From Planctomycetia bacterium (GTDB lineage Bacteria > Planctomycetota > Planctomycetia > Pirellulales > UBA1268): DNA of 64,000 nucleotides. The stretch lies in the NCBI GenBank assembly GCA_046343855.1, contig JBKDMX010000046.1, positions 4,483 to 68,482 on the forward strand, read 5' to 3'. Position numbers and translations under genes: made by a program. Below, in pieces: positions 9,277 through 55,704 of the stretch. Numbering within the stretch: position 1 is the stretch's first letter; the number at the start of each line of letters is the position of its first letter. A model generated the notes under the pieces. The model had not been told where the DNA came from, ran no database searches, and worked only from the letters and a program-made list of their open reading frames with translations.

Positions 9277-11105
9277 GCACGGAAAAAACGCTGCACACTG
9301 AGTGCGGGGTGAGCGGGGCTGCCCCTGCCGGTGAGACGGCGTTGGCGGCAAGCGAAGGCAGGATGCCGCAAGCGAAGGCGCTCTGGCTGGCGCAGTCAGC
9401 ATCGAGTGAGCGGAGGCCAGGATTGCCGAAGCGAACGTCCGGCGAGACGGCAGGGGCAGCCCCGCGCGCGGCTCCAGCCAAGGTAGTTCTTGCCTTGCTG
9501 CTGACTGTGCTGCCGGTCACGGCAAGCGCGAATGACTGGAACCAGTGGGGCGGCTCGCCGATACGCAACAACGTGTCGCCGGCGAAGAACATTCCCGCCG
9601 AGTGGGCCCCCGGCGACTTCGATGCGACCACCGGCGTCTGGAAGCCCGAGACGAGCAAGAACGTCGCCTGGGTGGCTGCGCTCGGGAGCCAGTCGTATGG
9701 CAATCCGGTCGTGGCCGGCGGCAAGGCGTATGTCGGTTCCAATAACGGCAAGGGCTGGCTGAAGCGGTATCCCCCCGAGGTCGATCTCGGCTGCCTCCTG
9801 GCCTTCGACGCCACGGACGGCTCGTTCCTCTGGCAGGATTCGAGCGAGAAGCTGCCCACGGGCCGCGTGCACGACTGGCCGCTCCAGGGCATCTGCTGCG
9901 CGCCGCTCGTGGAGGGGGACCGGCTGTGGTACGTGACCAGCCGCGGCGAAGTGAAGTGCCTGGATACCGAGGGCTTTCGCGACGGCGAGAACGACGGGCC
10001 GTTCACGACGGAGAAGGTGCAGGAGAAGGACGAGGCCGACGTGGTGTGGGTGCTCGACATGATGAAGCAGCTCGGCGTCTCGCAGCACAACATGTGCTCC
10101 TGCAGCGTGACGACCGCCGGCGACTTCCTCTTCGTGAACACGAGCAACGGCGTCGACGAGGGGCACATCAATCTTCCCAATGCCGAGGCGCCGAGCTTCC
10201 TCTGCATCGACAAGCGCGACGGCACGGTGCTCTGGGCCGACAACACGCCGGGCGCCAACGTGCTCCACGGCCAGTGGTCGAGCCCGGCCTATGCCGAGCT
10301 CGGCGGTGTGCCGCAGGTGATCTTCGGCGGCGGCGACGGCTGGGTCTACTCGTTCGACGCCCGCGGCGAGAACGGCCGCGCGAAGAAGCTCTGGGAGTTC
10401 GACTGCAATCCCAAGGAATCGAAGTACACGCTCGGCGGCCGGGCCGACCGCAACCACATCATCGGCACGCCGGTGATCCACGAAGGGCTCGTCTACATCG
10501 CCGTCGGCGAAGACCCGGAGCACGGCGAGGGCGTGGGGCATCTCTGGTGCATCGATCCCACGAAGCGGGGTGATGTCTCGAGCGAGCTGGCCGTCAGCCT
10601 CAAGGACCCAAACGCTCCCCTGCCCCGCCGCCGCGAGCAGGCCGTGATCAAAGAGCAGGGGGAAGTGGCTCGGCCGAATCCGAATTCCGCCGCCGTCTGG
10701 CACTACCCCGGCTTCGATGCCGACACAAACGGCAAGCTCGACTTCGAGGAGACGATGCACCGCACCTGCGGCACCGTGGCGATTGCCGACGGCCTGCTTT
10801 TCGTCGCCGACTTCAGCGGCCTCTTCCACTGCCTCGACCTGAAGACGGGCAAGCCGCACTGGACCCACGACATGCTCGCCGCCAGCTGGGGCTCGCCGCT
10901 CATCGTGGATGGGAAGGTCTTTATCGGCGATGAAGATGGCGACATCACGGTCTTCACACTCTCCAAGGAGCAGGAGATCCTCGCCGAGATCAACATGGGC
11001 AACAGCGTCTATTCGACCCCGATCGTCGCCGGCGATACGCTCTACATCGCCAACAAGAGCCACCTTTTCGCAATCCGCGCCGGCGCCGTTCCTGCCGGCA
11101 AGTAA
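9273..11105 (+). CDS. secreted PQQ-like beta-propeller repeat protein (start uncertain; repeat element A inside 5' end)
   Basis: ATG at 9273 overlaps the upstream stop (ATGA). The hydrophobic signal core (KVVLALLLTVLPVTASA, then NDWNQWGG) lies about 70 aa downstream because the family A repeat (9313-9465) is open in frame. Alternative ATG at 9372. Confidence 0.7.
   Translation: MSTEKTLHTECGVSGAAPAGETALAASEGRMPQAKALWLAQSASSERRPGLPKRTSGETAGAAPRAAPAKVVLALLLTVLPVTASANDWNQWGGSPIRNNVSPAKNIPAEWAPGDFDATTGVWKPETSKNVAWVAALGSQSYGNPVVAGGKAYVGSNNGKGWLKRYPPEVDLGCLLAFDATDGSFLWQDSSEKLPTGRVHDWPLQGICCAPLVEGDRLWYVTSRGEVKCLDTEGFRDGENDGPFTTEKVQEKDEADVVWVLDMMKQLGVSQHNMCSCSVTTAGDFLFVNTSNGVDEGHINLPNAEAPSFLCIDKRDGTVLWADNTPGANVLHGQWSSPAYAELGGVPQVIFGGGDGWVYSFDARGENGRAKKLWEFDCNPKESKYTLGGRADRNHIIGTPVIHEGLVYIAVGEDPEHGEGVGHLWCIDPTKRGDVSSELAVSLKDPNAPLPRRREQAVIKEQGEVARPNPNSAAVWHYPGFDADTNGKLDFEETMHRTCGTVAIADGLLFVADFSGLFHCLDLKTGKPHWTHDMLAASWGSPLIVDGKVFIGDEDGDITVFTLSKEQEILAEINMGNSVYSTPIVAGDTLYIANKSHLFAIRAGAVPAGK
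9313..9465 (+). repeat. family A inverted-terminal-repeat element, copy 1
   Basis: Termini GCGGGGCTGCCCCTGCCG / CGGCAGGGGCAGCCCCGC. Internal GGCAGGATGCCG..AAGCGA sub-repeat. Homologous to 33467-33608 and 41860-41998. Confidence 0.85.
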
Positions 11106-11115
11106 TCACAAGGAC

Positions 11116-12774
11116 ATGACCATGCTCCGCACGCTCGCGCTCCTTGGCCTGCTCGTCCTGCCCCTCGCGGCCCAGGCCGACACCCCGGCCGCCAACCCGG
11201 TCGACATGATCCGTCACGCCAAGCGGATCGTCTGCCTCGGCGATTCGATCACGCACGCCGGCGGCTGGGTGGCGCCGTTTGCGGCCTGGCTCGAGCGCGA
11301 GGGCATCGGGACCGAGTTGATCAACATGGGCCTGCCCAGCGAGACCGTCTCGGGCCTCTCCGAAGCCGGGCACGCCGACGGAAAATTCCCGCGGCCCGAT
11401 CTGGCCGAGCGGCTCGACCGCGTGCTGCGGGTGAGCCGCCCCGACCTCGTGATCGCCTGCTACGGGATGAATTGCGGCATCTATCAGCCGCTCGATGAGG
11501 CCCGGTTCACGAAGTTCAAGGAGGGAATCCAGCGGCTGCACGATGCGGTCGAGAAGACGGGCGCGAAGATCATCCACCTCACGCCGCCCCTCTACGACAA
11601 GCGGCCCGACAAGCCCGGCCCGGCCGGCGCGGCCGACTACGACGCCGTCCTCGACACCTATTCGAAGTGGCTGCTCTCGAAGCGGGCCGATGGCTGGGTC
11701 GTGCTCGACATCCACGGGCCGATGAAGGATTTGCTCGCCGCTGCGCGGGCCAAGGATCCGCAGGCGGTTTTTGCGCCCGACGCCGTGCATTCCAACGACG
11801 CCGGCGCGTGGGCCTTCGCCCGTTCGCTGTTCAAGGGGCTTGGCGACCACAAAGCGGCTGCCGCCGAGACGCCCGAGGCGTTTGCCGCATTCGTTCCGGA
11901 TGTGAAGCGGCGGATGGAAGTCCTGCGTGATGCGTACCTGGCGGCGGCCGGGCACCAGCGGCCCGGCATGGCCCCGGGGCTGCCGCTCGGCGAGGCCGAG
12001 GCGCAGGCTCGCGGGCTCACCGAATCGATCCGCTCGCGCCGGCTGCATCTCATGGGCGGCCAGAAGGGCTCGATCGAGTGGAAGAACCCGATCGAGTGGC
12101 CGAAGCCCCGCGTGGTCGATCCGGGGCCGGAGCCGTCGGGGCCCGCCCCCGTTCCCTCCGATGCGATCGTGCTCTTCGACGGCAAGAACCTCGACCAATG
12201 GACCAATGGCGGAAACTGGAAGGTGGCCGGCGGCATCGCCACGGTCGGCAAGGGAAAGATCGAGACGAAGCAGGGCTTCGGCGACTGCCAGCTGCACGTC
12301 GAGTTTCGCACCGCCGCCGACACGAGCGGCGAGGGGCAGCAGCGAAGCAACTCGGGCGTCTTCCTCATGGGGAAATACGAGATTCAGATCCTCGACTCGT
12401 TCCAGGACGGCACCGACAGCCCCATCACCTATTTCGACGGCCAGTGCGGTGCCCTCTACAAGCAGCAGCCGCCGGCCGTGAACGCCTGCCGCAGGCCCGG
12501 GGAGTGGCAGACCTACGACATCCTCTTCACCCGGCCACGCTTCCACGCCGACGGCACGCTCGCGAAGCCCGCCCGGATCAGCGTGCTCCACAACGGCGTG
12601 GCCATCCACTCCGACACGGTGATCAAGGGCGATACGTTCTTCCACGCCCCTCCGAGCTACACGAAGCACGACGACGCCCTGCCGATCGGGCTGCAGGAGC
12701 ACGGCAACCCGGTCCAGTTCCGCAACATCTGGGTCCGCCCCTTCGAGCCCCTCGCCCCAAAGCTCATCCCGTAG
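11116..12774 (+). CDS. secreted SGNH/GDSL hydrolase fused to DUF1080 (3-keto-disaccharide hydrolase-like) domain
   Basis: ATG at 11116, signal peptide, VCLGDSITHAGG block I. C-terminal FDGKNLDQW...NSGVFL...LQEHGNPVQFRNIWVRP is typical of DUF1080. The TAG stop lies in a family D hairpin. Confidence 0.8.
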   Translation: MTMLRTLALLGLLVLPLAAQADTPAANPVDMIRHAKRIVCLGDSITHAGGWVAPFAAWLEREGIGTELINMGLPSETVSGLSEAGHADGKFPRPDLAERLDRVLRVSRPDLVIACYGMNCGIYQPLDEARFTKFKEGIQRLHDAVEKTGAKIIHLTPPLYDKRPDKPGPAGAADYDAVLDTYSKWLLSKRADGWVVLDIHGPMKDLLAAARAKDPQAVFAPDAVHSNDAGAWAFARSLFKGLGDHKAAAAETPEAFAAFVPDVKRRMEVLRDAYLAAAGHQRPGMAPGLPLGEAEAQARGLTESIRSRRLHLMGGQKGSIEWKNPIEWPKPRVVDPGPEPSGPAPVPSDAIVLFDGKNLDQWTNGGNWKVAGGIATVGKGKIETKQGFGDCQLHVEFRTAADTSGEGQQRSNSGVFLMGKYEIQILDSFQDGTDSPITYFDGQCGALYKQQPPAVNACRRPGEWQTYDILFTRPRFHADGTLAKPARISVLHNGVAIHSDTVIKGDTFFHAPPSYTKHDDALPIGLQEHGNPVQFRNIWVRPFEPLAPKLIP

Positions 12775-12794
12775 GACAGGCCTCCGTGCCTGTC
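12771..12794. repeat. family D hairpin (loop CTCCGT)
   Basis: GTAGGACAGGCCTCCGTGCCTGTC. Its TAG is the stop of CDS 11116-12774. Confidence 0.85.
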
Positions 12795-12798
12795 ATTG

Positions 12799-12820
12799 GT
12801 AGGACGGGCTTCAGCCTGTC
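12799..12820. repeat. family D hairpin (loop TTCA, one stem mismatch)
   Basis: GTAGGACGGGCTTCAGCCTGTC. Confidence 0.8.
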
Positions 12821-12827
12821 GAAAGGA

Positions 12828-12850
12828 GACCGCTTGCTCCGCAAGCGGAT
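12828..12850. repeat. family C hairpin (solo)
   Basis: GACCGCTTGCTCCGCAAGCGGAT. Stem CCGCTTG/CAAGCGG. Confidence 0.8.
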
Positions 12851-12875
12851 AGACAGGCACGGAGGCCTGTCCTAC
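12851..12875. repeat. family D hairpin (loop ACGGAG)
   Basis: AGACAGGCACGGAGGCCTGTCCTAC. Its CTA (TAG on the minus strand) is the stop of CDS 12872-13114. Confidence 0.85.
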
Positions 12876-13114
12876 CCGAGCGTCGCCTTGATCGCCTCGA
12901 GTTCGGCGGCGGGCTCGCGATCGACGCAGTCGAGCCGGCCCGCCCGTGCATACCAATAACGGGCGTTGCCGGGATCTCCCTCGACCTTGTGAAGCACCGC
13001 GTGAATCCAGGCGGCCATGCGATCAGCCTCATCCTGCTGCACGATCCCGTGTGCAGCCTCCCAGTCGCCCGCGAGGGCCAGATCGATCGCCGCGAGCAGA
13101 TCGTCGCGGGTCAT
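12872..13114 (-). CDS. small conserved hypothetical protein (80 aa)
   Basis: ATG at 13114 overlaps the upstream stop (ATGA). [20 protein letters not shown] motif recalled from a widespread small-protein family. The TAG stop lies in a family D hairpin. Confidence 0.6.
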
Positions 13115-16397: not shown

Positions 16398-16415
16398 GCT
16401 GGACGAAGGCGAGCC

Positions 16416-16491
16416 GGAATCGGCGGAAGCGTGACGAGCATTTGGACCGAGTCCGCGAGGGCCACCGCGAGGCACCTTCTGCCGTTCCGGC
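16416..16491 (+). repeat. family B core (inside composite C-B-C element 16370-16540)
   Basis: GGAATCGGCGGAAGCGTGACGAGCATTTGGACCGAGTCCGCGAGGGCCACCGCGAGGCACCTTCTGCCGTTCCGGC. Confidence 0.85.
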
Positions 16492-16513
16492 GAGCCGGTG
16501 CGACACCAATCAA

Positions 16514-16540
16514 GATCCGCTTGCGGAACAAGCGGTCTAC
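16514..16540 (-). repeat. family C arm (right end of composite element)
   Basis: GATCCGCTTGCGGAACAAGCGGTCTAC. Confidence 0.8.
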
Positions 16541-17556: not shown

Positions 17557-17683
17557 CCATTCTGGAATACGTGTAGCGACGACTCGGCACACCACGGACG
17601 GAGGCGAAGGGATCGGCTGAAGCTCGACGAGCATTTGGCCGCCGCGGCCACCGCGAGTCGACTTCTGCCGTCCCGAAGCCGGC
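17557..17683 (+). repeat. family B long variant, copy 1
   Basis: Differs from 32800-32925 by 3 substitutions and 1 indel by my alignment. The last ~95 nt are identical. Confidence 0.9.
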
Positions 17684-18761: not shown

Positions 18762-19154
18762 ATGGAACCCGTCGTCGCCGAACTGATCAAGCTCAATCAG
18801 CAGTTGCTCACCGCCATCGCGTCGGGCGACTGGGATGCCTACCGCAGCCTGGTGGCCTCCGACATCACCTGCTTCGAGCCGGAGGCCCGCGGGCATCTCG
18901 TGGAAGGGCTCGCCTTTCACGAGTTTTATTTCAAGCTGTCGGGGGGCACGTCGCAGCCCGCCAAGCATCTCACGACGACGATGGTCGCGCCGAAGGTGCG
19001 GCTGCTGTCCGACACCGCCGCGGTGATCTCGTACGTGCGGCTCGTGCAGAAGCTCGACGACGCCGGCAAGCCGGTGACGGTCAGCTCCGAGGAGACTCGC
19101 GTCTGGCAAAAGCTCGGCGGCCGCTGGCAGCACGTCCACTTCCACCGCTCGTAG
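18762..19154 (+). CDS. CaMKII association-domain-like (NTF2 fold) protein
   Basis: FEPEARGHLVEGLAFHEFYF and the C-terminal EETRVWQKLGGRWQHVHFHRS closely mirror the CaMKII_AD family. The TAG stop lies in a family D hairpin. Confidence 0.75.
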   Translation: MEPVVAELIKLNQQLLTAIASGDWDAYRSLVASDITCFEPEARGHLVEGLAFHEFYFKLSGGTSQPAKHLTTTMVAPKVRLLSDTAAVISYVRLVQKLDDAGKPVTVSSEETRVWQKLGGRWQHVHFHRS

Positions 19155-19174
19155 GACAGGCGTCTCTGCCTGTC
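19151..19174. repeat. family D hairpin (variant loop)
   Basis: GTAGGACAGGCGTCTCTGCCTGTC. Its TAG is the stop of CDS 18762-19154. Confidence 0.8.
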
Positions 19175-19175
19175 T

Positions 19176-19201
19176 GTGACAGGCGCGGAGGCCTGTCGTA
19201 C
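19176..19201. repeat. family D hairpin (loop GCGGAG)
   Basis: GTGACAGGCGCGGAGGCCTGTCGTAC. Confidence 0.8.
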
Positions 19202-19223
19202 GAAAGGGCGGAGCCCGTCAAGC

Positions 19224-19249
19224 AAAAACGGACAGGATGTCCGTGTTTT
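19224..19249. terminator. bidirectional intrinsic terminator-like hairpin between convergent genes
   Basis: AAAAACGGAC-AGGAT-GTCCGTGTTTT. A-run and T-run flank a 6-bp stem. Confidence 0.45.
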
Positions 19250-19260
19250 GCGTGTAGACA

Positions 19261-19282
19261 GACAGGCTGAAGCCTATCCTAC
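19261..19282. repeat. family D hairpin (loop TGAA)
   Basis: GACAGGCTGAAGCCTATCCTAC. It supplies the moeA TAG stop on the minus strand. Confidence 0.8.
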
Positions 19283-20520
19283 CGGATCACGATCTCGACC
19301 TCGTCGCCGGCTTCGAAGCGCGTGCCGCCGGCGGGCAGGGCGATCATCCCGCCGGCGCCGGCGAGGCCGAGCAGGTCGGAGGAGCCGGTCCAGACGAGCG
19401 GCGTGGCATCGATCCCGTGCGACGTGTGCGCGAGCGTGCAGGGCAGGTAGACCGGCCTGTCGGGGGCGGCCTTCGCCGGCGCCGTGAGCCGCGCCCGACC
19501 GCGCGGAAGATGCCAGTGCTCGCGGGCCGCGCCGGCGAGGATCTGGATCGCCGGCCGCGTGAAGAGTTCGAAGCAGACGAGGCTGCTCGCCGGATTGCCC
19601 GGCAGGCCAAAGACGAGCGTGGGGGCCGCCTGCTCACGGGGCAGCGCGCCGAAGAAGACCGGCTTGCCCGGCTTGAGCCGCACCTTGTGGAAGATCTTCT
19701 CGACACCGCAGAGCCGGAAGATCTCCGGCACGAGGTCGAGATCGCCGGCCGACACGCCGCCGGAGAGCACGAGCACGTCGGCCGCGAGCCCCTGCGCCAC
19801 CGCCGCGCGGATCGCCTCCGGCCGGTCGGGGGCGATGCCCAGCGGGATCGGCTCGCCGCCGAGCAGCTTCACGGCGGCGAAGAGCATCGGGCCATTGCTG
19901 TTGCGCGTTTGGCCGAAGGCGGGCACCTCGTCGGTCGGCACGAGCTCGCTGCCGGTCGAGAGGATCGCCACGCGCACCTGCGTCGCGGCGACGACGTGTG
20001 TCGCACCCGCCTCGGCGGCCAGGCCGGTCTCGGCGGCCCCGAGCGTCATCCCGGCGGCGAGCACCTGCTGCCCGCGGCGAAACGCCGCCCCCTGCCGGGC
20101 GATGTGCTGGCCGGGGCGGAACTTCTCGTCGCGGAGCCGCACCTTTGCCCCGGCATGCACGCCGCGGCTATCGTCGACGGCGCACTCGACGGGAATGACG
20201 GCGTCGGCCCCCGCAGGCATCGGCGCCCCGGTCATGATCCGCGCGCACGCGCCGGGCTTGATCTGGAGCGTGGTGACGTCGCCGGCCGCGAGATCCACGA
20301 CGACGTCCAGCTCCAGCACGCCATCGCGGGCGGCGATCGCGTCGTCGCTCAAGAGCGCGAAGCCGTCCATCATCGCCCGGTCCCACGGAGGCGAATCGAC
20401 GTCGGAGACGACGCGCGTTGCGAGCCTGCGGCCGTAGGCGTCGAGCAATCGCGTCCGCCGCGGCGGCAGCGGGGCGGCGGTCTTCTCGATGAGGGCGATG
20501 GCTTCGGCGAGGTCGATCAT
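19279..20520 (-). CDS. moeA: molybdopterin molybdenumtransferase
   Basis: 413 aa. SPPWDRAMMDGFAL, LSTGSEL and GLPGNPAS motifs. The TAG stop lies in a family D hairpin. Confidence 0.9.
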   Translation of the reverse strand: MIDLAEAIALIEKTAAPLPPRRTRLLDAYGRRLATRVVSDVDSPPWDRAMMDGFALLSDDAIAARDGVLELDVVVDLAAGDVTTLQIKPGACARIMTGAPMPAGADAVIPVECAVDDSRGVHAGAKVRLRDEKFRPGQHIARQGAAFRRGQQVLAAGMTLGAAETGLAAEAGATHVVAATQVRVAILSTGSELVPTDEVPAFGQTRNSNGPMLFAAVKLLGGEPIPLGIAPDRPEAIRAAVAQGLAADVLVLSGGVSAGDLDLVPEIFRLCGVEKIFHKVRLKPGKPVFFGALPREQAAPTLVFGLPGNPASSLVCFELFTRPAIQILAGAAREHWHLPRGRARLTAPAKAAPDRPVYLPCTLAHTSHGIDATPLVWTGSSDLLGLAGAGGMIALPAGGTRFEAGDEVEIVIR

Positions 20521-20543
20521 GAATCGTGGCAGGATGAAGATGC

Positions 20544-20565
20544 GACAGGCTGAAGCCTGTCCTAC
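20544..20565. repeat. family D hairpin (loop TGAA)
   Basis: GACAGGCTGAAGCCTGTCCTAC. It supplies the trpG-like gene TAG stop on the minus strand. Confidence 0.85.
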
Positions 20566-21143
20566 CGGTGCAGGAACGTGCGCAGCAGGTCGTAGCCCGC
20601 CGGCGTCAGGAAGCTCTCGGGGTGGAACTGCACGCCATAGATCGGCAGCGTCTGATGGCGGATCGCCATGATCTCGCGCGAGCCGTCGGGTGCGGTGGAC
20701 CAGGCATCGACCTCGAAGTCGCGGGGCAGCGTGGGCGGATCGATCACGAGGCTGTGATACCGCGTGGCCTCGATCGGGCTTTCCAAGCCGGCGAAGAGCC
20801 CCTTGCCCGCATGCTCGATCCGATCGACCTTGCCGTGCATGAGCCGCTTGGCCCGCACGATCCTGCCACCGAAGACCTGGCCGATCGACTGGTGGCCGAG
20901 GCAGACGCCGAGGATCGGCATCCGACCGGCGAACCGCCTGACGACGTCGCAGGAGATGCCGGCATCATCCGGCGTGCACGGCCCCGGCGAGATCACGAGG
21001 TGGCTCGGCGCCTTCTTTGCGATCTCGTCGCCGGTGATCTTGTCGTTGCGATGGACCTCGAGCGGCATCTCGGGCGCGATCTCGCCGATCCGCTGCACGA
21101 GGTTCCAGGTGAACGAGTCGTAATTATCAATGAGGAGGATCAT
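20562..21143 (-). CDS. trpG: anthranilate/aminodeoxychorismate synthase component II (glutamine amidotransferase)
   Basis: ATG at 21143 (GAGGAGG RBS). MILLIDNYDSFTWNLVQ, GVCLGHQ, QFHPES. The TAG stop lies in a family D hairpin. Confidence 0.9.
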   Translation of the reverse strand: MILLIDNYDSFTWNLVQRIGEIAPEMPLEVHRNDKITGDEIAKKAPSHLVISPGPCTPDDAGISCDVVRRFAGRMPILGVCLGHQSIGQVFGGRIVRAKRLMHGKVDRIEHAGKGLFAGLESPIEATRYHSLVIDPPTLPRDFEVDAWSTAPDGSREIMAIRHQTLPIYGVQFHPESFLTPAGYDLLRTFLHR

Positions 21144-21167
21144 GTATTTCGTTTGACGAGGGAGGCT

Positions 21168-21314
21168 GGAATCGGCGGAAGCTCGACGAGCATTTGGACC
21201 GAGTCCGCGAGGGCCACCGCGAGGAGACTTCTGCCGTTCCAGCCGACCGGACCGGCAAAAGGTTCCTCGCGGAAGCCGCGGCGGCCTAACGCTCGTCATG
21301 CTTCCGCCGATTCC
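21168..21314 (+). repeat. family B element with 24-bp terminal inverted repeats (most complete form)
   Basis: GGAATCGGCGGAAGCTCGACGAGC (21168-21191) against the reverse complement of 21291-21314, 22/24 identical. B core in the left half. Confidence 0.85.
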
Positions 21315-24113: not shown

Positions 24114-24590
24114 ACGCTGCGGGCGCACGCAAGCGCATCGCAAACCCCGGAGGTGAGCGCAGCCCGAACCCGGACCATTCACACCATCGGCGGCGCGATG
24201 CTTGCAGGAGCGTTGCTCGAAGACCTGTCGACCGGCCGCACCGGACTATTCCGGCGCCACCGTGCCTGCCTCCCCGCCCTCGCAGCTTGGCATGCTCTTG
24301 AAAACTGGTAGGTCTTCTGACTCCCAGACTCAGCCGGCTGCATGCCTTCTCGCGAGCAACGAGGCTTTCGCCGCGCCATCGCAATGGCCAGACCACAGCC
24401 AGCCTCGTCGCCTGGATACAGCGGCGGGGCCGTCCCGGAATCACACCGGAGTTCCCTGTTTGCCCATCGAAAGCAGATGCGATCGCTAGGCCACCAGAAT
24501 CGTGAAGGGCAATCTATCGGGGGGTGGGAGCCTGTCAAGCGGCGCCGGTTTCACTCGCCTGACCGGCAGACTTTCACACGCGTCTCGAGC

Positions 24591-24644: not shown

Positions 24645-24920
24645 TGCGGTCTCGCGCCGCATAGTTTACGCATGCGGAAAGCGTGGCATTTCTTACCCAA
24701 CGCGCAGCCGTAAGTCGTTGCCATAAAAAAACTTGGAGACACTCAAGCCGCCTTCGTCCATCCGTCGATAGCCACCTTGACCCCCGGGGCAATCACTGTG
24801 CCCGTCGGGCAACCAGGGGGCGGCAGCAACCTGCAATGCTTCGAGTCACGGAATGGCTCGACAGGCCTGTCGCGGAAAAGTTCGTGGATCACAACCTCGG
24901 GGCAACGAAGCCTCAAGAAC

Positions 24921-24934
24921 GGAAGTCGACTTCC
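24921..24934. promoter_or_regulatory. perfect 14-bp palindrome upstream of the Cys-rich protein gene
   Basis: GGAAGTCGACTTCC, 33 nt upstream of ATG 24967. Confidence 0.35.
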
Positions 24935-24966
24935 GGGTGCTCCACAAGCAAAGGAGATGTGGCTCG

Positions 24967-25788
24967 ATGAAGCGTATGATGTTCCTCGGTGCGCTGGTTC
25001 TCGGTGTCACCGTTTGTAGCCAGTCTTTTGGTTTCGAGCTCCTTGACCGGATGCTCGGCCACAAGGGCTGCACCTCGTGCTGTGAGCCCGGCTGCGACGC
25101 CGGCAATGGATGCTGTGAGCCTGGCTGCGGTGCCGGCAACGGCTGTGCGGAACCGGCCTGCGGTGCTGGTAATGGGTGTGCGGAGCCCGCTTGCGACGCC
25201 GGTGCCGGCTGCTGCGAGCCGAGCTGCGGTGCGGCGTCTTGCTGCGGTGTTCGGAAGAAGCATGACCTCTTCGGCGGGCTGAAGGGCCTGTTCGAAAAGT
25301 GCAAGCGGAAGCACCACGGCTGCACCGACAGCTGCTGCGGTGAGCCCGATTGCGGTGCTGGCAACGGTTGCGCCGAGCCCGCTTGCGGTGCTGGCAACGG
25401 CTGTGCGGAACCGGCGTGCGACGCTGGTGCCGGCTGCTGCGAGCCCAGCTGCGGTGCGGCTTCTTGCTGCGGGACCCGTGCTCGGAAGTGCCGTGGCACC
25501 CCGATCCTTGACCTGCTCAAGGCGATCCACGAAGCGAAGAAGGATTGCCTGAGCCGTCGTCGTGCCAGCTGCTGCGATAGCTGCTGCAACGACCCGGATT
25601 GTGGTGCTGGCAACGGCTGCTGCGAGCCCGCCTGTGGCGCTGCCGGCAACGGCTGCTGCGAGCCGGCTTGCGGTGCGGCCTCGACTCCGGTCGAAGCGAC
25701 CCCGGCCGCCCCGACCCCCGATGCCTCGGCTTCGGCCAAGGTCCCGGGCAAGGTCGTGGCGGTGAGCCGCACGGTTGCTGCCAAGTAA
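24967..25788 (+). CDS. secreted Cys-rich repeat protein (EP-x-C-G-A-G-N-G-C repeats), family not recognised
   Basis: AAGGAG at 24951-24956, ATG at 24967, signal peptide, about 44 Cys in 273 aa. Own terminator at 25843-25881. Confidence 0.7.
   Translation: MKRMMFLGALVLGVTVCSQSFGFELLDRMLGHKGCTSCCEPGCDAGNGCCEPGCGAGNGCAEPACGAGNGCAEPACDAGAGCCEPSCGAASCCGVRKKHDLFGGLKGLFEKCKRKHHGCTDSCCGEPDCGAGNGCAEPACGAGNGCAEPACDAGAGCCEPSCGAASCCGTRARKCRGTPILDLLKAIHEAKKDCLSRRRASCCDSCCNDPDCGAGNGCCEPACGAAGNGCCEPACGAASTPVEATPAAPTPDASASAKVPGKVVAVSRTVAAK
25114..25490 (+). repeat. intragenic duplication of a ~45-aa Cys-rich block (period ~226 nt) made of ~36-nt sub-repeats
   Basis: CEPGCGAGNGCAEPACGAGNGCAEPACDAGAGCCEPSCGAASCCG recurs as GEPDCGAGNGCAEPACGAGNGCAEPACDAGAGCCEPSCGAASCCG. 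Confidence 0.85.
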
Positions 25789-32799: not shown

Positions 32800-32925
32800 C
32801 CGTTCTGGAATACGTGGAGCGACGCTCGGCAAACCACGGACGGAGGCGAAGGGATCGGCTGAAGCTCGACGAGCATTTGGCCGCCGCGGCCACCGCGAGT
32901 CGACTTCTGCCGTCCCGAAGCCGGC
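32800..32925 (+). repeat. family B long variant, copy 2
   Basis: Near-identical to 17557-17683. Starts 2 nt after the MBL gene stop. Confidence 0.9.
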
Positions 32926-33466: not shown

Positions 33467-33608
33467 GGCGAAGGGCTGCCCGTGCCGTCGAGCCGGCGTT
33501 GGCGGCAAGCGAAGGCAGGATGCCGAAAGCGCAGCCGCCATCGAGTGAACGGAGCCCAGGATGGGCGCAGTGAACGTCCGAGCGAGGCGGCATGGGCAGC
33601 CCCTCGCC
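33467..33608 (+). repeat. family A element, copy 2
   Basis: Termini GGCGAAGGGCTGCCCGTGCCG / CGGCATGGGCAGCCCCTCGCC. Shares CGGCGTTGGCGGCAAGCGAAGGCAGGATGCCG with copy 1. Confidence 0.85.
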
Positions 33609-33632: not shown

Positions 33633-33656
33633 GACAGGCACGGAGGCCTGTCGTAC
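33633..33656. repeat. family D hairpin (loop ACGGAG)
   Basis: GACAGGCACGGAGGCCTGTCGTAC. Lies 25 nt after family A copy 2. Confidence 0.8.
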
Positions 33657-33675: not shown

Positions 33676-35535
33676 ATGCAGGACTCACGTCACCCGCCGT
33701 TCGAGAATGAGCGCGAGGCCGCGCGGTGGTGGCTCGACAACGTCTATGCCGGCGATGATGCCGTGCAGCTCACGCCGCGGGCCGTGATCAGCGGCATGCT
33801 GATCGGCGGCGTGATGTCGATCAGCAATCTCTACGTCGGCCTGAAGACCGGCTGGGGCCTGGGCGTGACGATCACGTCCTGCATCATCGCCTACGCCGTC
33901 TTCACGTTCCTCGAGCGGATCGTGCCGGCCTATCGCAACCGGCCGTTCTCGACGCTCGAAAACTACACGATGTCGAGCGCCGCGAGCGCCGCCGGCTACA
34001 TGAGCAGCGCCGGCCTCGTCTCGGCGATTCCCGCGCTCTATCTCACGACCGGCCGCACGCTCACCTGGTGGGAGATCGGCCTCTGGCTCTTCGCCCTCTC
34101 GATCCTCGGCGTCTTCATGGCGATCCCGCTCAAGCGGCAGCTGATCAACATCGACCAGCTCCCCTTCCCGTCCGGCATCGCCACCGCCGAAACGCTCAAG
34201 AGCATGCACAGCGAAGGGGGCGAGGCGGTGGCGAAGGCACGGTCGCTCTTCGCCTTCGGCATCGCGGGCGCCGCCGTCGCGGTCTGGCGCGATCTCTTCG
34301 CGCAGGTGAAATTCCTCGCCGCCTACGCCTTTCCGGCCGAGATCCCGTTTTGGCCGTCCGCCTTCGGCCGCGACCTGCTCGCGAAATACACGATCGGCAT
34401 CGAGGGCTCGCTGATCATGGTCGCCGCCGGCGCGATCATGGGCATGCGGGTGGCGGCGTCGATGCTCGTGGGCTCGATCATCTTCTACGGTGTCATCGGG
34501 CCGATCCTCGTGGATCGCGGCATCGCCCAGCCCGGCTACCGCGGGATCGTGTCGTGGGTGCTCTGGCCCTCGACGGCGATGATGGTCGCCTCGGGGCTCT
34601 TGTCATTTGGACTCAAGTGGCGGACGGTGGCCCGCGCCTTCGGCGGCCTCTCGCGGCTCTTCGGCACCACGGCGGCGGCCGACGACGACGATCCGCTCGC
34701 GCACGTCGAGGTGCCCGCGTCATGGTTCATCGTCGGCACGCTCACTGCGGGCACGGCCTGCGTGATCCTCGGCCACTATCTCTTCGGCATCACATGGTGG
34801 ATGGGCATCCTCGCGGTGCTCGTGACGTTCCTCCTCTCGATCGTCGCCGCCCGGGCCACCGGTGAGACCGACATCACGCCGATCGGTGCGATGGGGAAGA
34901 TCACGCAGCTGATCTACGGCGTTGTCGCGCCGACGAACATCACCACGAACCTGATGACCGCCTCGATCACGTCTGGCGCCGCATCGCACGCCGCCGATCT
35001 GCTCACCGATCTCAAGAGCGGCCACCTGCTCGGCGGCAATCCCCGCAAGCAGACGATCTCACAGCTCTTCGGCGTCTTGGCTGGCACGCTCGTGAGCGTG
35101 CCGGCCTATCTCTTCGTGGTGCAGCGCAACCCCGAGCGGCTCGGCTCGGAGGCGCTCCCCGCGCCGTCGGCGAAAGTGTGGGCGGGCGTGGCCGAACTGC
35201 TCGCCAAGGGCATCGACGCCCTGCCCGCCGGGGCGCTCACCGCGATCGTGGTGGGCGCCGCGATCGGGATCGCGCTGACGCTCCTCGAGGAATTCGCTCC
35301 GAAGTCGTGGCGTCCGTGGCTCCCCTCGACGACGGGCCTCGGGATCGCCGGCGTGATCCCGGCGTTCAATGCCTTCGCGATGTTCGCCGGGGCGCTCGCC
35401 GCGTGGCTCTTCGCGAAGGCGCGGCCGCAGGCGGCGGAGACCTACACCGTGCCCATCTCGAGCGGCCTCATCGCCGGCGAAAGCCTGATGGGCGTGGCGA
35501 TCATCCTCACCATCGAACTGCTGAAACTCTGGTGA
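33676..35535 (+). CDS. OPT family oligopeptide transporter
   Basis: ATG at 33676. Many TM helices. NLYVGLKTGWGLGVTITS and TGETDITPIGAMGK are typical of OPT. Confidence 0.85.
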   Translation: MQDSRHPPFENEREAARWWLDNVYAGDDAVQLTPRAVISGMLIGGVMSISNLYVGLKTGWGLGVTITSCIIAYAVFTFLERIVPAYRNRPFSTLENYTMSSAASAAGYMSSAGLVSAIPALYLTTGRTLTWWEIGLWLFALSILGVFMAIPLKRQLINIDQLPFPSGIATAETLKSMHSEGGEAVAKARSLFAFGIAGAAVAVWRDLFAQVKFLAAYAFPAEIPFWPSAFGRDLLAKYTIGIEGSLIMVAAGAIMGMRVAASMLVGSIIFYGVIGPILVDRGIAQPGYRGIVSWVLWPSTAMMVASGLLSFGLKWRTVARAFGGLSRLFGTTAAADDDDPLAHVEVPASWFIVGTLTAGTACVILGHYLFGITWWMGILAVLVTFLLSIVAARATGETDITPIGAMGKITQLIYGVVAPTNITTNLMTASITSGAASHAADLLTDLKSGHLLGGNPRKQTISQLFGVLAGTLVSVPAYLFVVQRNPERLGSEALPAPSAKVWAGVAELLAKGIDALPAGALTAIVVGAAIGIALTLLEEFAPKSWRPWLPSTTGLGIAGVIPAFNAFAMFAGALAAWLFAKARPQAAETYTVPISSGLIAGESLMGVAIILTIELLKLW

Positions 35536-40554: not shown

Positions 40555-40576
40555 GACAGGCTGAAGCCTGTCCTAC
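40555..40576. repeat. family D hairpin (loop TGAA) in nuoC-nuoD spacer
   Basis: GACAGGCTGAAGCCTGTCCTAC, identical to 20544-20565. Confidence 0.85.
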
Positions 40577-40578
40577 TT

Positions 40579-41814
40579 ATGGCAATCGCGACCAACGATT
40601 TTGATTCCGCAACCGGCGCCCCAGACGGCGCGCGCAGCGAAGACTATCTCTGGACGCTGAACTTCGGGCCGCAGCACCCCGCGACCCACACGACGCTCCG
40701 GCTCGTGCTCAAGCTCGAGGGAGAGCGGGTCGTCGACGCCATGCCGGAGATGGGCTACCTGCACTCCGGATTCGAGAAGATCGGCGAGCACCTCACGTTC
40801 AACCAATACGTGACGGTCACCGACCGGATGAACTACATCTCGCCGATGGCCAACAACGTGGCCTGGCACCATGCGGTCGAGAAGCTCCTGGGCATCGAGC
40901 TCACGCCGCGCTGCAAATACATCCGCACGATCATCACCGAGCTCGCGCGGATCAGCGACCACCTGCTCTGCAATGGCGCCGTCGGCCTTGACACCGGCGC
41001 CTTCACGTTCTTTCTGTACGCCTTCTATCAGCGCGAGGTGATCTACGACATCTTCGAGACGCTCTGCGGCGCCCGCTTTACGAATTCCTACACGCGGGTG
41101 GGCGGGGTCTCGCAGGATTTCACGCCGCTGGTGATCGAGAAGATCCGCACGTTCGTGAAGACCTTCCCGAAGACACTCGACGACATGGAGCGGCTGCTCA
41201 CGCGCAACCGCATCTTCGTCGATCGCACGAAGGGCGTGGGCGTGCTCACCAAAGACGAGGCGATCAATCGGAGCGCGTCCGGCCCGGTCGCCCGCGCCAG
41301 CGGCGTCACCCGCGATCTGCGGAAAGACGAGCCCTACCTCGCCTACGAAGACTTCCAGTTCCAGATCTGCTGTGCCTCGGCCGGCGACTGCTACGCCCGC
41401 TACCTCGTGCGGATGCAGGAGATGCGGGAGAGCCTGAAGATCGTCACGCAGGCGCTCGAAAACCTCCCCTCCGGGGCGGTGAACGTGGGCATCGACCAGC
41501 GGACGGCGCTGCCGACGAAGAAGCAGGTCTACTCGACGATCGAGGGCACGATCTCGCACTTCGAGCTCTCGATGAGCAATCGCGGTTTCGAGGTGCCAAA
41601 CGAGGAGGCCTACGGCGCGATCGAGGCTCCCAACGGCGAGCTCGGCTTCTACATCGTGGGCGACGGCAACGAAACGGCCTACCGCGCCCGCTGCCGCCCC
41701 CCCTCCGTGCTCCACTTCGCGCTCTTCCCCCACCTGATCCGCGGCCACACGCTGTCCGACGTGGTGGCGGTGCTCGGCAGCCTCAACATCATCGCCGCGG
41801 AGCTCGACCGATGA
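40579..41814 (+). CDS. nuoD: NADH-quinone oxidoreductase subunit D
   Basis: LNFGPQHPATHTTLRL, GYLHSGFEK, APNGELGFY. Confidence 0.95.
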   Translation: MAIATNDFDSATGAPDGARSEDYLWTLNFGPQHPATHTTLRLVLKLEGERVVDAMPEMGYLHSGFEKIGEHLTFNQYVTVTDRMNYISPMANNVAWHHAVEKLLGIELTPRCKYIRTIITELARISDHLLCNGAVGLDTGAFTFFLYAFYQREVIYDIFETLCGARFTNSYTRVGGVSQDFTPLVIEKIRTFVKTFPKTLDDMERLLTRNRIFVDRTKGVGVLTKDEAINRSASGPVARASGVTRDLRKDEPYLAYEDFQFQICCASAGDCYARYLVRMQEMRESLKIVTQALENLPSGAVNVGIDQRTALPTKKQVYSTIEGTISHFELSMSNRGFEVPNEEAYGAIEAPNGELGFYIVGDGNETAYRARCRPPSVLHFALFPHLIRGHTLSDVVAVLGSLNIIAAELDR

Positions 41815-41859
41815 TAAACCCGGCCAAACCGGCCAAACTGGCGAACTCAACGACGAGGA

Positions 41860-41998
41860 GGACGGGGCTGCCCGTATCGTCGAGCCGGCGTTGCCGTCCA
41901 GCGCAGGCAGGATGCCGGAGCGCAGACGGCATCGAGCGAGCGAAGGGCAGGATGCCCGAAGCGAGCGTCCGAGCGAGGCGGTACGGGCAGCCCCGTCC
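41860..41998 (+). repeat. family A element, copy 3 (nuoD-nuoE spacer)
   Basis: 20-bp termini GGACGGGGCTGCCCGTATCG / CGGTACGGGCAGCCCCGTCC (1 mismatch). Same internal modules. Confidence 0.85.
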
Positions 41999-42042
41999 GG
42001 AGCCAACCACATGAGAAGGTTTTCGGAGACTTCGCACGAAGC

Positions 42043-42540
42043 ATGATCGCCCCCAAACAAATCCTCACCGACGAGATGGTGGCCAAGATCGAGGCGCTCG
42101 CGCCGCGGTATCCCAACCGCCGCGCCCTCACGCTTCCGGCGCTCCACATCGTCAATGCCGAGCTGCGGCACGTGCCGATGGAGGCGGTGGTCGAGATCGC
42201 CGCGGTGCTGGGGCTCGCGCCGGCGGAGGTGCAAGACACGCTCACCTTCTACCAGTTCTTCCACCAGGAGAAGCCGCACGGCACGGTGCGGGCCTTCGTC
42301 TGCCGGTCGGTCTCGTGTGCGCTTCGCGGCGGCGACCACCTGCTCGAGCACCTCTGCCATAAAAACGGCATCAAGCCCTACGGCACCACGCCCGACGGCG
42401 AACTGACGATCGAGCCGGCCGAGTGCCTGGGGGCCTGCGACTTCGCCCCCTGCATCCTCGCCAACGACGACCTGCTCAAGAACATGACGCCCGAGGCCGC
42501 CGAGGCCGAGCTCAAGAAACCCCGTGCGAGGGCCACCTGA
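42043..42540 (+). CDS. nuoE: NADH-quinone oxidoreductase subunit E
   Basis: Thioredoxin-like 2Fe-2S subunit. CRSVSCALRG ... ECLGACDFAP. Confidence 0.92.
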   Translation: MIAPKQILTDEMVAKIEALAPRYPNRRALTLPALHIVNAELRHVPMEAVVEIAAVLGLAPAEVQDTLTFYQFFHQEKPHGTVRAFVCRSVSCALRGGDHLLEHLCHKNGIKPYGTTPDGELTIEPAECLGACDFAPCILANDDLLKNMTPEAAEAELKKPRARAT

Positions 42541-48689: not shown

Positions 48690-50915
48690 ATGCCGCCACT
48701 CTCCCCCGCCACGCTCCTCGTTCTCGTGCCGCTCTTGCCGCTCGTGGGCGCGATCCTCACGATCCTGCTCGGTCGGGTGCTCGGCTCACGGGCGCACCTG
48801 CCGGCCATCGCGGGCATCGCGGCCGCGGCCGGCGCCGCCGTGATGCTGCTGTTGGCGACGGCCAACCAGGTGGGCAGCCCGCACGGCTCGCATCAGGAGC
48901 CGATCCGTCCGGTCGAGATGATCTCGACGCTCTGGCAGTGGGCGACGGTGGACGAGGCCTACACCCCCGCTGCCGACAGCGCCGCGGCCATCCCCGGCAC
49001 CGCGGTGAGTCGCCAGCCCTCCGATGCGCGTTCCTTCTCGATCCCGGTGGCGCTGCGGCTCGATCCACTCACCGCCACGATGCTCACGATCATCACCTGC
49101 GTGGGCCTGCTCGTGGCGATCTATTCCGTGGGCTACATGCACGACGATCCCGGTTACCCGCGGTTCTTCGCGCTCGTGTCGATGTTCGTCTTCTCGATGG
49201 CGATGCTCGTGGCGGCGAGCAATTTCCTGATCGTCTATGTCTTCTGGGAGGCGGTGGGCGCCTGCAGCTACCTGCTGATCGGCTTCTGGTTTCGGAAGCC
49301 CGAGGCGGCCCGGGCGGCGAAGAAGGCGTTTCTCGTCAACCGCGTCGGCGACTTCGGGCTGGCCATCGCCACGTTCCTGCTCTGGATGACCTACGGCACG
49401 CTTGACTTCCACGACACGCTCTCCCCCGACGGCACGATTCTTCCCGGCATCCTCGGGCAGACCCGCCTCGCCGACGCAGCCGGCATCGTGGGCGGCGTGG
49501 TGGGCACCGCGATCTGCCTGCTCTTGCTTTTGGCCGCCTGCGGCAAGAGCGCTCAGCTGCCGCTGCACGTCTGGCTGCCCGACGCGATGGAAGGCCCCAC
49601 GCCGGCCAGCGCCCTGATCCACGCCGCCACGATGGTCACGGCGGGCATCTATTTGATCACCCGCTGTGCGCCGCTCTTTGTGGCCTGCCCCGGCGCCCTG
49701 TCGGCCGTGTCGATCGTCGGTGGCACGACGGCCCTCGTCGCGGCGCTCATCGCCACGGTGCAGAACGACCTCAAGCGGGTGCTCGCCTATTCCACGATCA
49801 GTCAGCTCGGCTACATGTTTGCGAGCCTCGGCACCGGCACGATGCTCGGCTTCACGGCGGCGATCTTCCACCTCGTGACCCACGCCTTCTTCAAGGCGCT
49901 CCTCTTCATGGGTGCAGGCTCCGTGATGCACGCGATGGGGGGCGTGATCGACATGCGGCGGTTCGGCGGCCTGCGACGCGTCATGCCGATCACCGCGGCC
50001 ACGTTCTTGATCGGTTCGCTCGCGCTCGCCGGCGTCGCACCGTTTGCAGGCTTCTTCAGCAAGGATGAAATCCTCGCCACGCTCCACTCCCGCGGCTGGC
50101 CCGACGCCCATTCCGAACACCACGACGCGGCGGCGAGCCCCGCCGTGGCCGCCGCCGTACGACAGGCCTCCGTGCCTGTCTTATTTGCCGCGCATTCACA
50201 AACCGCGTCGCAGCCCCTTTCCACCCTCGACACGCCCGCAACGTTTCGCACGCTCTTCTGGATGGCGCTCGTCACCGCGGGGCTCACGGCCTTCTACACG
50301 TTTCGCGCCGTCTTCATGACGTTCACCGGCCCCACGCGGGTGCCGGAGGAGGCGGGGCACCATGCCCACGAATCCCCGCCGGTGATGACGCTCCCGCTGG
50401 TGATCCTCGCCGTGCCGTCGGCCCTCGCCGGCTGGTGGCTCTTCAGCACCAACTGGCTGGCCCACTTCCTCTCCGCGACGCCCTCGCTCACCGCTCCTTC
50501 CGTGGCGAAGACGGCGGCTCCACACGTCTTCCACATGGATCTCGCGATCCAGGGCTCGCTGGCCGCGGCGATCGGGATCGTGATCGCCGCGATCGGCCAC
50601 CTCGGTCGCCGCAGCGACGCCCCGCAGATGGAGCGTTTCCTCGGGCCGCTCCAGACGGTCTTCGCCAACAAGTTCTACTTCGACCAGCTCTATTCCGCGC
50701 TCGTCGTGCGGCCGCTCGAGGCGCTGGCGATGGTCGCGGCGCTCATCGACCGCTACGTGATCGACGGCCTCGTCAATGGCGTCGCCACGATCCCCGTCGT
50801 GCTCGGCGGCATCGTCCGCCGCCTGCAGTCGGGGCTCGTGCAGCGATATGCTCTGGCCGGCGTCATGGGTGTGCTCATGATCGTCCTCGCCCTCGCCTGG
50901 CAGCTCCGCGGCTGA
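48690..50915 (+). CDS. nuoL: NADH-quinone oxidoreductase subunit L (741 aa, with loop insertion carrying a family D hairpin)
   Basis: WEAVGACSYLLIGFW, KSAQLPLHVWLPDAMEGPTP, GFFSKDEIL. Confidence 0.93.
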   Translation: MPPLSPATLLVLVPLLPLVGAILTILLGRVLGSRAHLPAIAGIAAAAGAAVMLLLATANQVGSPHGSHQEPIRPVEMISTLWQWATVDEAYTPAADSAAAIPGTAVSRQPSDARSFSIPVALRLDPLTATMLTIITCVGLLVAIYSVGYMHDDPGYPRFFALVSMFVFSMAMLVAASNFLIVYVFWEAVGACSYLLIGFWFRKPEAARAAKKAFLVNRVGDFGLAIATFLLWMTYGTLDFHDTLSPDGTILPGILGQTRLADAAGIVGGVVGTAICLLLLLAACGKSAQLPLHVWLPDAMEGPTPASALIHAATMVTAGIYLITRCAPLFVACPGALSAVSIVGGTTALVAALIATVQNDLKRVLAYSTISQLGYMFASLGTGTMLGFTAAIFHLVTHAFFKALLFMGAGSVMHAMGGVIDMRRFGGLRRVMPITAATFLIGSLALAGVAPFAGFFSKDEILATLHSRGWPDAHSEHHDAAASPAVAAAVRQASVPVLFAAHSQTASQPLSTLDTPATFRTLFWMALVTAGLTAFYTFRAVFMTFTGPTRVPEEAGHHAHESPPVMTLPLVILAVPSALAGWWLFSTNWLAHFLSATPSLTAPSVAKTAAPHVFHMDLAIQGSLAAAIGIVIAAIGHLGRRSDAPQMERFLGPLQTVFANKFYFDQLYSALVVRPLEALAMVAALIDRYVIDGLVNGVATIPVVLGGIVRRLQSGLVQRYALAGVMGVLMIVLALAWQLRG
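50157..50180. repeat. family D hairpin inside the nuoL reading frame
   Basis: GTACGACAGGCCTCCGTGCCTGTC, translated in frame as VRQASVPV. Confidence 0.8.
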
Positions 50916-55589: not shown

Positions 55590-55613
55590 TCCTACACGCG
55601 AGCGAGCACGGGT

Positions 55614-55677
55614 CGGCGGAAGCTCGCGGAGCATTTGGACCGAGTCCGCGAGGGCCACCGCGACGCGACTTCTGCCG
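55614..55677 (+). repeat. family B core (inside composite C-B-C element 55564-55731)
   Basis: CGGCGGAAGCTCGCGGAGCATTTGGACCGAGTCCGCGAGGGCCACCGCGACGCGACTTCTGCCG. Confidence 0.85.
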
Positions 55678-55704
55678 CCCGGGCGAGCGGCTGCGGCACA
55701 AAAA

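Follow-up and report, generated by a model that had tools for sequence, protein, structure and literature searches.

Short hairpins recur at the ends of genes in the DNA of an uncultured freshwater planctomycete, and in several cases the stop codon of the gene lies within the repeat itself. The stretch considered here, hereafter the window, comprises 64,000 nucleotides from a Planctomycetia bacterium (Pirellulales; assembly GCA_046343855.1, contig JBKDMX010000046.1, positions 4,483 to 68,482). The question that it raises is what these hairpins are, and whether they brought their TAG to the genes or settled next to a TAG that was already there. A first-pass annotation made from the sequence alone proposed an element resembling repetitive extragenic palindromes (REPs) and bacterial interspersed mosaic elements (BIMEs) that reshapes gene 3' ends. 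This proposal is borne out by the one-sided head of the hairpin, by the occurrence of the repeat on both sides of transposase genes in other genomes, by an insertion visible among orthologues, and by the properties of a published superfamily (PMC3733652). It is very probable that the hairpins constitute a GTAG-tagged REP family in a freshwater Planctomycetia (Pirellulales-like) genome, the copies presumably being made or kept by a cognate REP-associated tyrosine transposase (RAYT, a Y1 HUH enzyme).

Copies were sought in the window with the pattern GACAGGC-N2-8-GCCTGTC and, in a second pass, with one mismatch allowed per arm. Eight exact matches were obtained (at 12775, 12852, 19155, 19178, 20544, 33633, 40555 and 50161), with none in 100 dinucleotide-preserving shuffles and none expected by chance; the second pass added two further copies, at 12803 (GACGGGC) and 19261 (GCCTATC). 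The bare stem heptamer GACAGGC occurs 27 times vs 13 expected, and the hairpin arms account for the excess. Each unit spans 22-24 nt and consists of a 5' head (GTAG, in some copies GTAC), a 7-bp G+C-rich stem (GACAGGC/GCCTGTC) and a loop of 4-6 nt. Once the 4-nt head is counted in, the ten hairpin positions of the first-pass annotation are correct, and so are its two main loop types, CTCCGT/ACGGAG and TTCA/TGAA, represented by four copies each; the other loops are GTCTCT (19155) and GCGGAG (19178). When the copies are oriented so that the loop reads CTCCGT-like or TTCA, all ten read 5'-GTA[G/C]-GACAGGC-loop-GCCTGTC-3', and the four bases on the side opposite the head are unconserved across the window copies. 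The GTAG/CTAC described earlier as flanking the hairpins is present, but on one side only, and the head is GTAG in seven copies and GTAC in three (19178, 33633 and 50157). Similarly, where a loop-less variant had been placed at 24859-24872, a 12-nt palindrome does exist (GACAGGCCTGTC, 24860-24871, with the likely start of a Cys-rich repeat protein about 100 nt downstream), but it has no loop and no GTAG head and cannot fold into a hairpin. This doubtful member may be a REP remnant or a chance occurrence.

Neither target duplications nor terminal repeats nor conserved sequence beyond the hairpin were found at the window copies and the other loci. A miniature inverted-repeat transposable element was rejected on the grounds of unit length (22-24 nt vs a typical 50-400 nt) and of the lack of a duplicated flank or conserved outer sequence, while the anatomy of the hairpins led to the rejection of CRISPR, integron attC sites and tRNA-like elements. 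Rfam covariance models at gathering score gave no match to the hairpins; the one sequence of the window that they match is a cobalamin riboswitch (24290-24513, reverse strand; RF00174, 78 bits).

Single copies have predicted fold energies of -12 to -17 kcal/mol. The outer inverted pair of the cluster at 12771-12875 can pair over 24 bp, like a REP doublet forming hairpin (REPIN), with a predicted energy of -78.8 kcal/mol, the mean for shuffles being -40. Imperfect stems carry information about the strand that folds. Among the matches listed from all loci, copies with exactly one non-Watson-Crick stem position show G·T on the GTAG strand in 25 cases vs A·C in 7 (P = 0.002), an A·C on the head strand being equivalent to G·T on the opposite strand. 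Both imperfect copies of the window obey this rule, and for each of them the mRNA of the abutting gene corresponds to the GTAG strand. The bias of 25 to 7 therefore indicates that the hairpin fold is kept on the head strand. Such a fold suits the single-stranded DNA substrate of a RAYT and a hairpin at the 3' end of an mRNA alike, and the G·T test does not separate them.

Genes were called with a codon-usage model and checked with Pfam. Nine of the ten copies are in non-coding DNA, though this makes up 10% of the window (binomial P ~1e-8), and the TAG of the head is the stop codon of a gene for five of the seven GTAG heads. These five represent about a quarter (5/19) of the TAG stops of the window. 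As had been noted at first pass, both convergent gaps hold three hairpins each; the GTAG heads of these clusters point outward. In the cluster at 12771-12875, the first copy (12771-12794, forward; GTAG-GACAGGC-CTCCGT-GCCTGTC) supplies the stop, TAG at 12772-12774, of a gene for a GDSL lipase / 3-keto-disaccharide hydrolase (11116-12774, forward). The third copy (12852-12875, reverse; head CTAC at 12872-12875) supplies that of a gene for a conserved protein of 80-81 aa (12872-13114, reverse), and between them lies an inner member with one G·T pair on the head strand (12799-12820, forward; GTAG-GACGGGC-TTCA-GCCTGTC). The cluster at 19151-19282 begins with a copy (19151-19174, forward; GTAG-GACAGGC-GTCTCT-GCCTGTC) whose head TAG ends a SnoaL/CaMKII_AD-like gene (18762-19154, forward). 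It continues with a GTAC copy (19178-19201, reverse; head 19198-19201, loop CTCCGC in element orientation) and closes with one (19261-19282, reverse; oriented as the element, GTAG-GATAGGC-TTCA-GCCTGTC, which contains a U·G pair on the mRNA strand of moeA) that provides the stop of moeA (19279-20520, reverse). The seventh copy (20544-20565, reverse) ends the gene for a class-I glutamine amidotransferase (GATase; 20562-21143, reverse).

Donation of a TAG to these five genes had been claimed at first pass and holds for all of them. The Pfam matches of the lipase/hydrolase, SnoaL-like, MoeA and GATase genes reach the end of the profile, hence these genes are not truncated, and the small protein is real, with 902 homologues, mostly of 81 aa and some of them outside the phylum. 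The 3' ending CGG TAG GAY AGG C is indeed shared by moeA and the GATase gene, which had been described as trpG-like. The two GTAG heads that do not serve as stops belong to the inner copy at 12799 and to a copy in the 34-nt nuoC/nuoD spacer (40555-40576, reverse; head at 40573), which is antisense to the nuo operon and is kept in six of six related contigs. A GTAC copy (33633-33656, reverse) lies 20 nt upstream of the start codon of an OPT transporter gene at 33676. Another (50157-50180, forward) is tolerated in frame inside nuoL, which is one 741-aa gene, REP included, according to independent gene callers; the residues that it encodes, VRQASVPV, fall within a variable loop at about residue 490. 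In L002, a diverged strain, nuoL has no REP, and an unrelated stretch of similar length occupies that place. In other genomes, 44 of 160 copies have at least 100 open codons upstream of the head TAG, vs 8% for all TAGs. This supports donation there only weakly, because the VGQA read-through frame is often open too (n = 34) and a high G+C content inflates open frames.

Which state came first can be judged from four contigs of relatives (L127-L130) with the same gene order and a MoeA identity of 80-92%. In all four, the stop of the GATase gene and the start of moeA overlap as ATGA. At the same junction in the window, 42 nt (AGGACAGGCTTCAGCCTGTC followed by 22 more bases; about 20521-20562) stand between CGGT and CATGA. 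The GATase gene stops at the REP TAG, 1 or 2 residues early, so its stop codon has been replaced, and the formerly overlapping pair is uncoupled, the two genes now being 41 nt apart. Read against the relatives, a REP-bearing segment of 42 nt was inserted into an ancestral ATGA overlap, providing the new TAG and separating the gene pair. The ends of moeA and of the SnoaL-like gene vary in a similar manner. The gap between them is free of REPs in L130, where the stops are TGA (moeA) and TAA (SnoaL-like gene), and in L127 the SnoaL-like gene ends with TGA and no REP abuts it. At the end of moeA, L127 and L129 carry REPs, and the stop is TAG in both. Moreover, GTAG hairpins at both gene ends in L129 (4240-4298) have altered yet complementary stems, GTCAGGCC/GGCCTGAC and GTCGGGCC/GGCCCGAC, and also donate TAG stops; since they still pair, they are a related sub-family or a compensated copy. 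Presence and absence among relatives fit insertion at the GATase/moeA junction, at the nuoL copy and, from L130, at the moeA/SnoaL-like ends. Since the relatives have an ATGA overlap, and TGA or TAA stops where no REP is adjacent, the TAG came with the element and was not a pre-existing target. The comparison of gene 3' ends with those of relatives, suggested in the first-pass annotation, thus shows that a new TAG stop arose through the insertion of a segment carrying a REP.

The association with a RAYT is seen in other genomes. In Cylindrospermum (L022), the gene of a 176-aa protein lies between two inverted copies whose heads point inward. The protein matches Pfam Y1_Tnp and contains the motifs HVH and YIRQNP, and its homologues are annotated as REP-associated tyrosine transposases. 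In metagenomes, the hairpin was sought together with the N-terminal PHWE motif of RAYTs at a distance of 78-108 nt after it, and a RAYT was called at a hidden Markov model (HMM) E value below 1e-20. Fourteen of the 18 contigs found in this way carry a RAYT, and several have clusters of GT[AG]G-NACAGGC REPs on both sides of its gene. Altogether, a RAYT flanked by the same repeat is present in L022, in a further locus (L104) and in the 14 metagenome contigs. The motifs [DN]HVH and YIRQNP fit RAYT subclass 2.7 of Quentin et al. 2018 (PMC6006769), which is described as having long canonical REPs, headed at the 5' end by GT[AG]G, on its flanks and as occurring in Cyanobacteria and a few other phyla (PMC6006769).

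Some RAYT genes are found together with their repeats inside other genes. At L104:97-2340, L138:1-2646 (reverse), L137:1-3156, L140:8208-9914 (reverse) and L134:491-1810, host genes contain whole REP-RAYT-REP units, either internally or at their end, in the same frame and without an intervening stop codon. In valS (L104) and carB (L138), a Pfam domain is broken by the RAYT and resumes after it, and a methylase-like open reading frame (ORF) with a TDPPYY motif carries the unit in frame in L137. In thiE (L140) and dtd (L134), the 3' end of the host gene is fused to the RAYT. Read in that frame, the REP gives V-G-Q-A-S-x-L-S.

The closest known relatives are GTAG-tagged REPs, a superfamily in which 24 families, short-looped and with stem lengths of 6-13 bp, have been defined (Di Nocera, De Gregorio & Rocco 2013, BMC Genomics 14:522; PMC3733652). 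Families have been described in Planctomycetes, Verrucomicrobia, Cyanobacteria and Chloroflexi. They form head-outward dimers and clusters, mainly between convergent and co-directional ORFs and within 20 bp of 3' ends, and their termini often supply neighbouring ORFs with a TAG stop, REPs inside ORFs being known as well (PMC3733652). With these properties on record, every element of the first-pass finding was already known for the class. In common with the superfamily, which includes the SMAG repeats of Stenotrophomonas maltophilia, the window copies have a GTAG left unpaired at one end of a short-looped hairpin whose G+C-rich stem falls in the range of 6-9 bp. They are also alike in their occurrence as singletons and head-outward dimers or clusters, the location at 3' ends, the donation of TAG and the presence of some copies inside ORFs. 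They differ in their host, an uncultured freshwater Planctomycetia lineage, and in the GTAC heads. The stem string GACAGGC is absent from the text and supplements of the 2013 survey, the consensus figure lying outside the text search, and no match to families GTAG-1 to GTAG-24 was found; a literature string search with GTAGGACAGGC returned only unrelated eukaryotic primer matches. What this adds is modest: the GACAGGC family in a freshwater planctomycete not yet cultured, a comparative case in which stop donation is polarised, the wide conservation of one stem, and the G·T bias of the head strand.

Other systems resemble the window copies in part. Like the REP/BIMEs of Escherichia coli with their TnpA(REP)/RAYT (REPtron), the family combines a 5' GTAG guide-like tetranucleotide with a hairpin, which in that system are recognised as single-stranded DNA. 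In other genomes its repeat flanks the RAYT gene with heads facing the gene, as in the REPtron. However, the unit has 22-24 nt vs about 35 nt, lacks the bulge and is associated with a RAYT of another subclass, one that the window and related contigs do not contain. The pairing of the inverted copies 12771-12794 and 12852-12875 recalls the REPINs of Pseudomonas (Bertels & Rainey 2011), but their 57-nt spacer holds another REP and a terminator-like hairpin, and most copies are singletons or irregularly spaced. Rickettsia palindromic elements and intragenic REPs offer a parallel to the in-frame copy in a variable loop of a conserved gene such as nuoL, although the Rickettsia elements are 100-150 nt long and belong to other families, whereas the window copy encodes 8 residues only. 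Finally, the subterminal hairpins of IS200/IS605 insertion sequences also involve a Y1 HUH enzyme and a folded single strand next to a tetranucleotide. The window hairpins are not ends of insertion sequences, as most copies have no transposase between them and there are no paired left and right ends.

When a one-genome-per-species collection was scanned for the pattern together with its head, at least 120 loci were obtained, of which 65 have at least two copies within 8 kb; these multi-copy loci indicate that the matches in other genomes are not chance singletons, and inverted pairs are common there. Host taxa were read from the record titles of metagenome-assembled genomes (MAGs), some of which are possibly mis-binned. 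Among the matches listed, they include Planctomycetota, Acidobacteriota, Verrucomicrobiota, Chloroflexota, Cyanobacteria, Nitrospirota, Armatimonadota, Saccharimonadales and others. In the same set, the G+C content of the loci ranges from 36% to 71%, each genome has its own characteristic loop, and 160 of 168 copies in other genomes carry the GTAG head. Among these matches, a Pirellulales MAG from Lake Mendota (L017, L070, L090) comes nearest in loop types (TTCA and CTCCGT). Freshwater metagenome contigs and the NCBI MAG GCA_046306175.1 match the window itself, and close homologues are labelled Planctomycetia or Pirellulales.

Several points weigh against a REP family with its own RAYT in this lineage. 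The data from the source organism amount to 64 kb and a few related contigs, with a count of 10 copies in the 64 kb, and the head is GTAC rather than GTAG in three of these. Among all ORFs of the window and the fetched loci, no RAYT of the source lineage was found by phmmer followed by a two-sequence HMM, matches being restricted to L022 and L104; the REP-RAYT link therefore rests on other genomes. A RAYT profile search aimed at a Pirellulales homologue gave, in its best 120 matches, almost exclusively cyanobacterial proteins. Furthermore, REPs are usually lineage-specific, and the same stem across phyla is unusual, which hints at something beyond a simple lineage-bound family. A broader proposal, possible but rather doubtful at present, is that the GTAG-GACAGGC hairpin and a subclass 2.7-like RAYT form one REPtron lineage, with the same 11-nt head and stem over at least 10 phyla. 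It would rewrite gene ends systematically, converting stops to TAG and uncoupling overlapping genes, and whole REP-RAYT-REP units would persist in frame in essential genes (valS, carB). If true, this would imply either that transfer between phyla has happened repeatedly or that enzyme and substrate form a very old pair under tight constraint. One REP stem over many phyla and in-frame REP-RAYT units in housekeeping genes would merit a study of their own if confirmed.

Different explanations of the hairpins can be set against the REP assignment. The GTAG could be an insertion target and not a donated sequence, the hairpin being inserted 3' of a pre-existing (G)TAG in the way that IS200/IS605 elements use a tetranucleotide. 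RAYTs are related to the IS200/IS605 TnpA transposases, which follow this rule (PMC6006769), and each of the five genes has a G as the final base of its last sense codon. Moreover, the GATase insertion can be drawn between CGGT and CATGA, in which case the 'GT' of the head would have been there before. This explanation is nevertheless unlikely. At that junction the four relatives have a TGA within the ATGA overlap and no TAG, and in relatives without an adjacent REP the stop is TGA for moeA and either TAA or TGA for the SnoaL-like gene. GTAG is found, too, on copies far from stops (12799, 40573) and on essentially all copies listed from other phyla, and the head therefore travels with the element.

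It is less likely again, and in fact very improbable, that the hairpins are locally evolved, immobile terminators or attenuators without a U tract, even though they fold stably and occupy convergent gaps and the 3' ends of genes. None of the copies is followed by a T tract, and a terminator scan of the window called none of the REPs. The sites that it called in the two convergent gaps are other hairpins with T tracts, situated between the REPs: one of a different family with a T-rich tail (12830-12848, reverse; CCGCTTGCGGAGCAAGCGG) and a bidirectional one flanked by A and T runs (19228-19244; AAAAACGGACAGGATGTCCGTGTTTT). With such separate, canonical sites in both gaps, there is no need for the REPs to act as terminators. 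The 34-nt gap of the co-oriented nuoC and nuoD holds one copy and the nuoL gene another, and convergent evolution would not yield the same 11-nt head and stem in many phyla, flanking transposase genes. The least probable explanation, by a small step, is that of palindromes which a dimeric regulator or nucleoid protein binds as duplex DNA, with an operator or architectural role. The stems are perfect palindromes, as such sites would be, and REP/BIMEs of E. coli bind IHF and gyrase. Yet the conserved head is one-sided, the loops vary freely in length and sequence while stem pairing is kept, and most copies are at 3' ends and not at promoters. A G·T bias toward one strand would, in addition, be meaningless for duplex DNA.

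For a GTAG-tagged REP family, the mechanism established for E. coli TnpA(REP) offers a model. By analogy, a cognate RAYT would recognise the folded GTAG strand as single-stranded DNA and make or maintain the copies. Harm done by insertions elsewhere would explain why copies persist chiefly just beyond the ends of genes, and where a copy landed on the last codons, the TAG of its head would take over as stop. As for a role in RNA, the first-pass annotation had suggested that the element may be a U-tract-less terminator or an mRNA stabiliser. The sequence features described above make transcription termination unlikely, and the REPs are probably not the terminator. In E. coli, the decay of REP-containing mRNAs needs RNase R and PNPase (PMC12320835), and by analogy with findings in E. 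coli and Pseudomonas the mRNA hairpin would probably act as a barrier to 3'-to-5' exonucleases that shields the mRNA upstream of it. The stem begins 1 nt past the stop codon at the head-TAG genes, so that a terminating ribosome must melt the hairpin. Expression was reportedly found by Liang, Rudd and Deutscher in 2015 to be reduced, via ribosome stalling, when a REP lies within about 15 nt of the stop. The REP hairpin may affect termination or translational coupling.

For the source genome, the significance of the family is mainly that of an annotation aid, the hairpins marking gene ends, together with a warning that some apparent ORF extensions or N-terminal extensions are REP artefacts. For REPs in general, the GATase/moeA junction offers a clean polarised case of an insertion that makes a new stop and breaks a stop/start overlap, an effect which published surveys asserted from position alone.

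Further repeats and features were observed around the copies. One NCBI MAG contig (JBKDXW010000073; L003:11236-11470 compared with window 41814-42043) matches the window up to nuoD and continues with unrelated genes. The junction, which would be a rearrangement or a mis-join at a repeat, carries a REP whose TAG is the stop of a PTPS gene. The hairpin at 12830-12848 belongs to a third small family with a second member at 16517-16535 (CCGCTTGC-GGA/TCC-GCAAGCGG, T-rich tails, terminator-like), and a similar hairpin adjoins a REP in the Pirellulales locus L020. An intergenic repeat of about 140 nt (GGGCTGCCC...GCAGGATGCC...) is located at 9316-9464, 33473-33603 and 41865-41994, and also at L130:4246-4494, in the moeA/SnoaL-like gap where the window has REPs. 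A separate dispersed repeat of about 100 nt, with the core GGCCACCGCGAG..GACTTCTGCCGT, is found at 1-47, 16409-16509, 17583-17683, 21161-21261, 32825-32925 and 55602-55702, two of the copies being 99% identical. Finally, the ORF at 24853-25788 (forward) has a signal-peptide-like start and encodes a Cys-rich protein with about ten 33-nt (11-aa) repeats, C-x-E-P-x-C-G-A-G-N-G, at 25052-25680.

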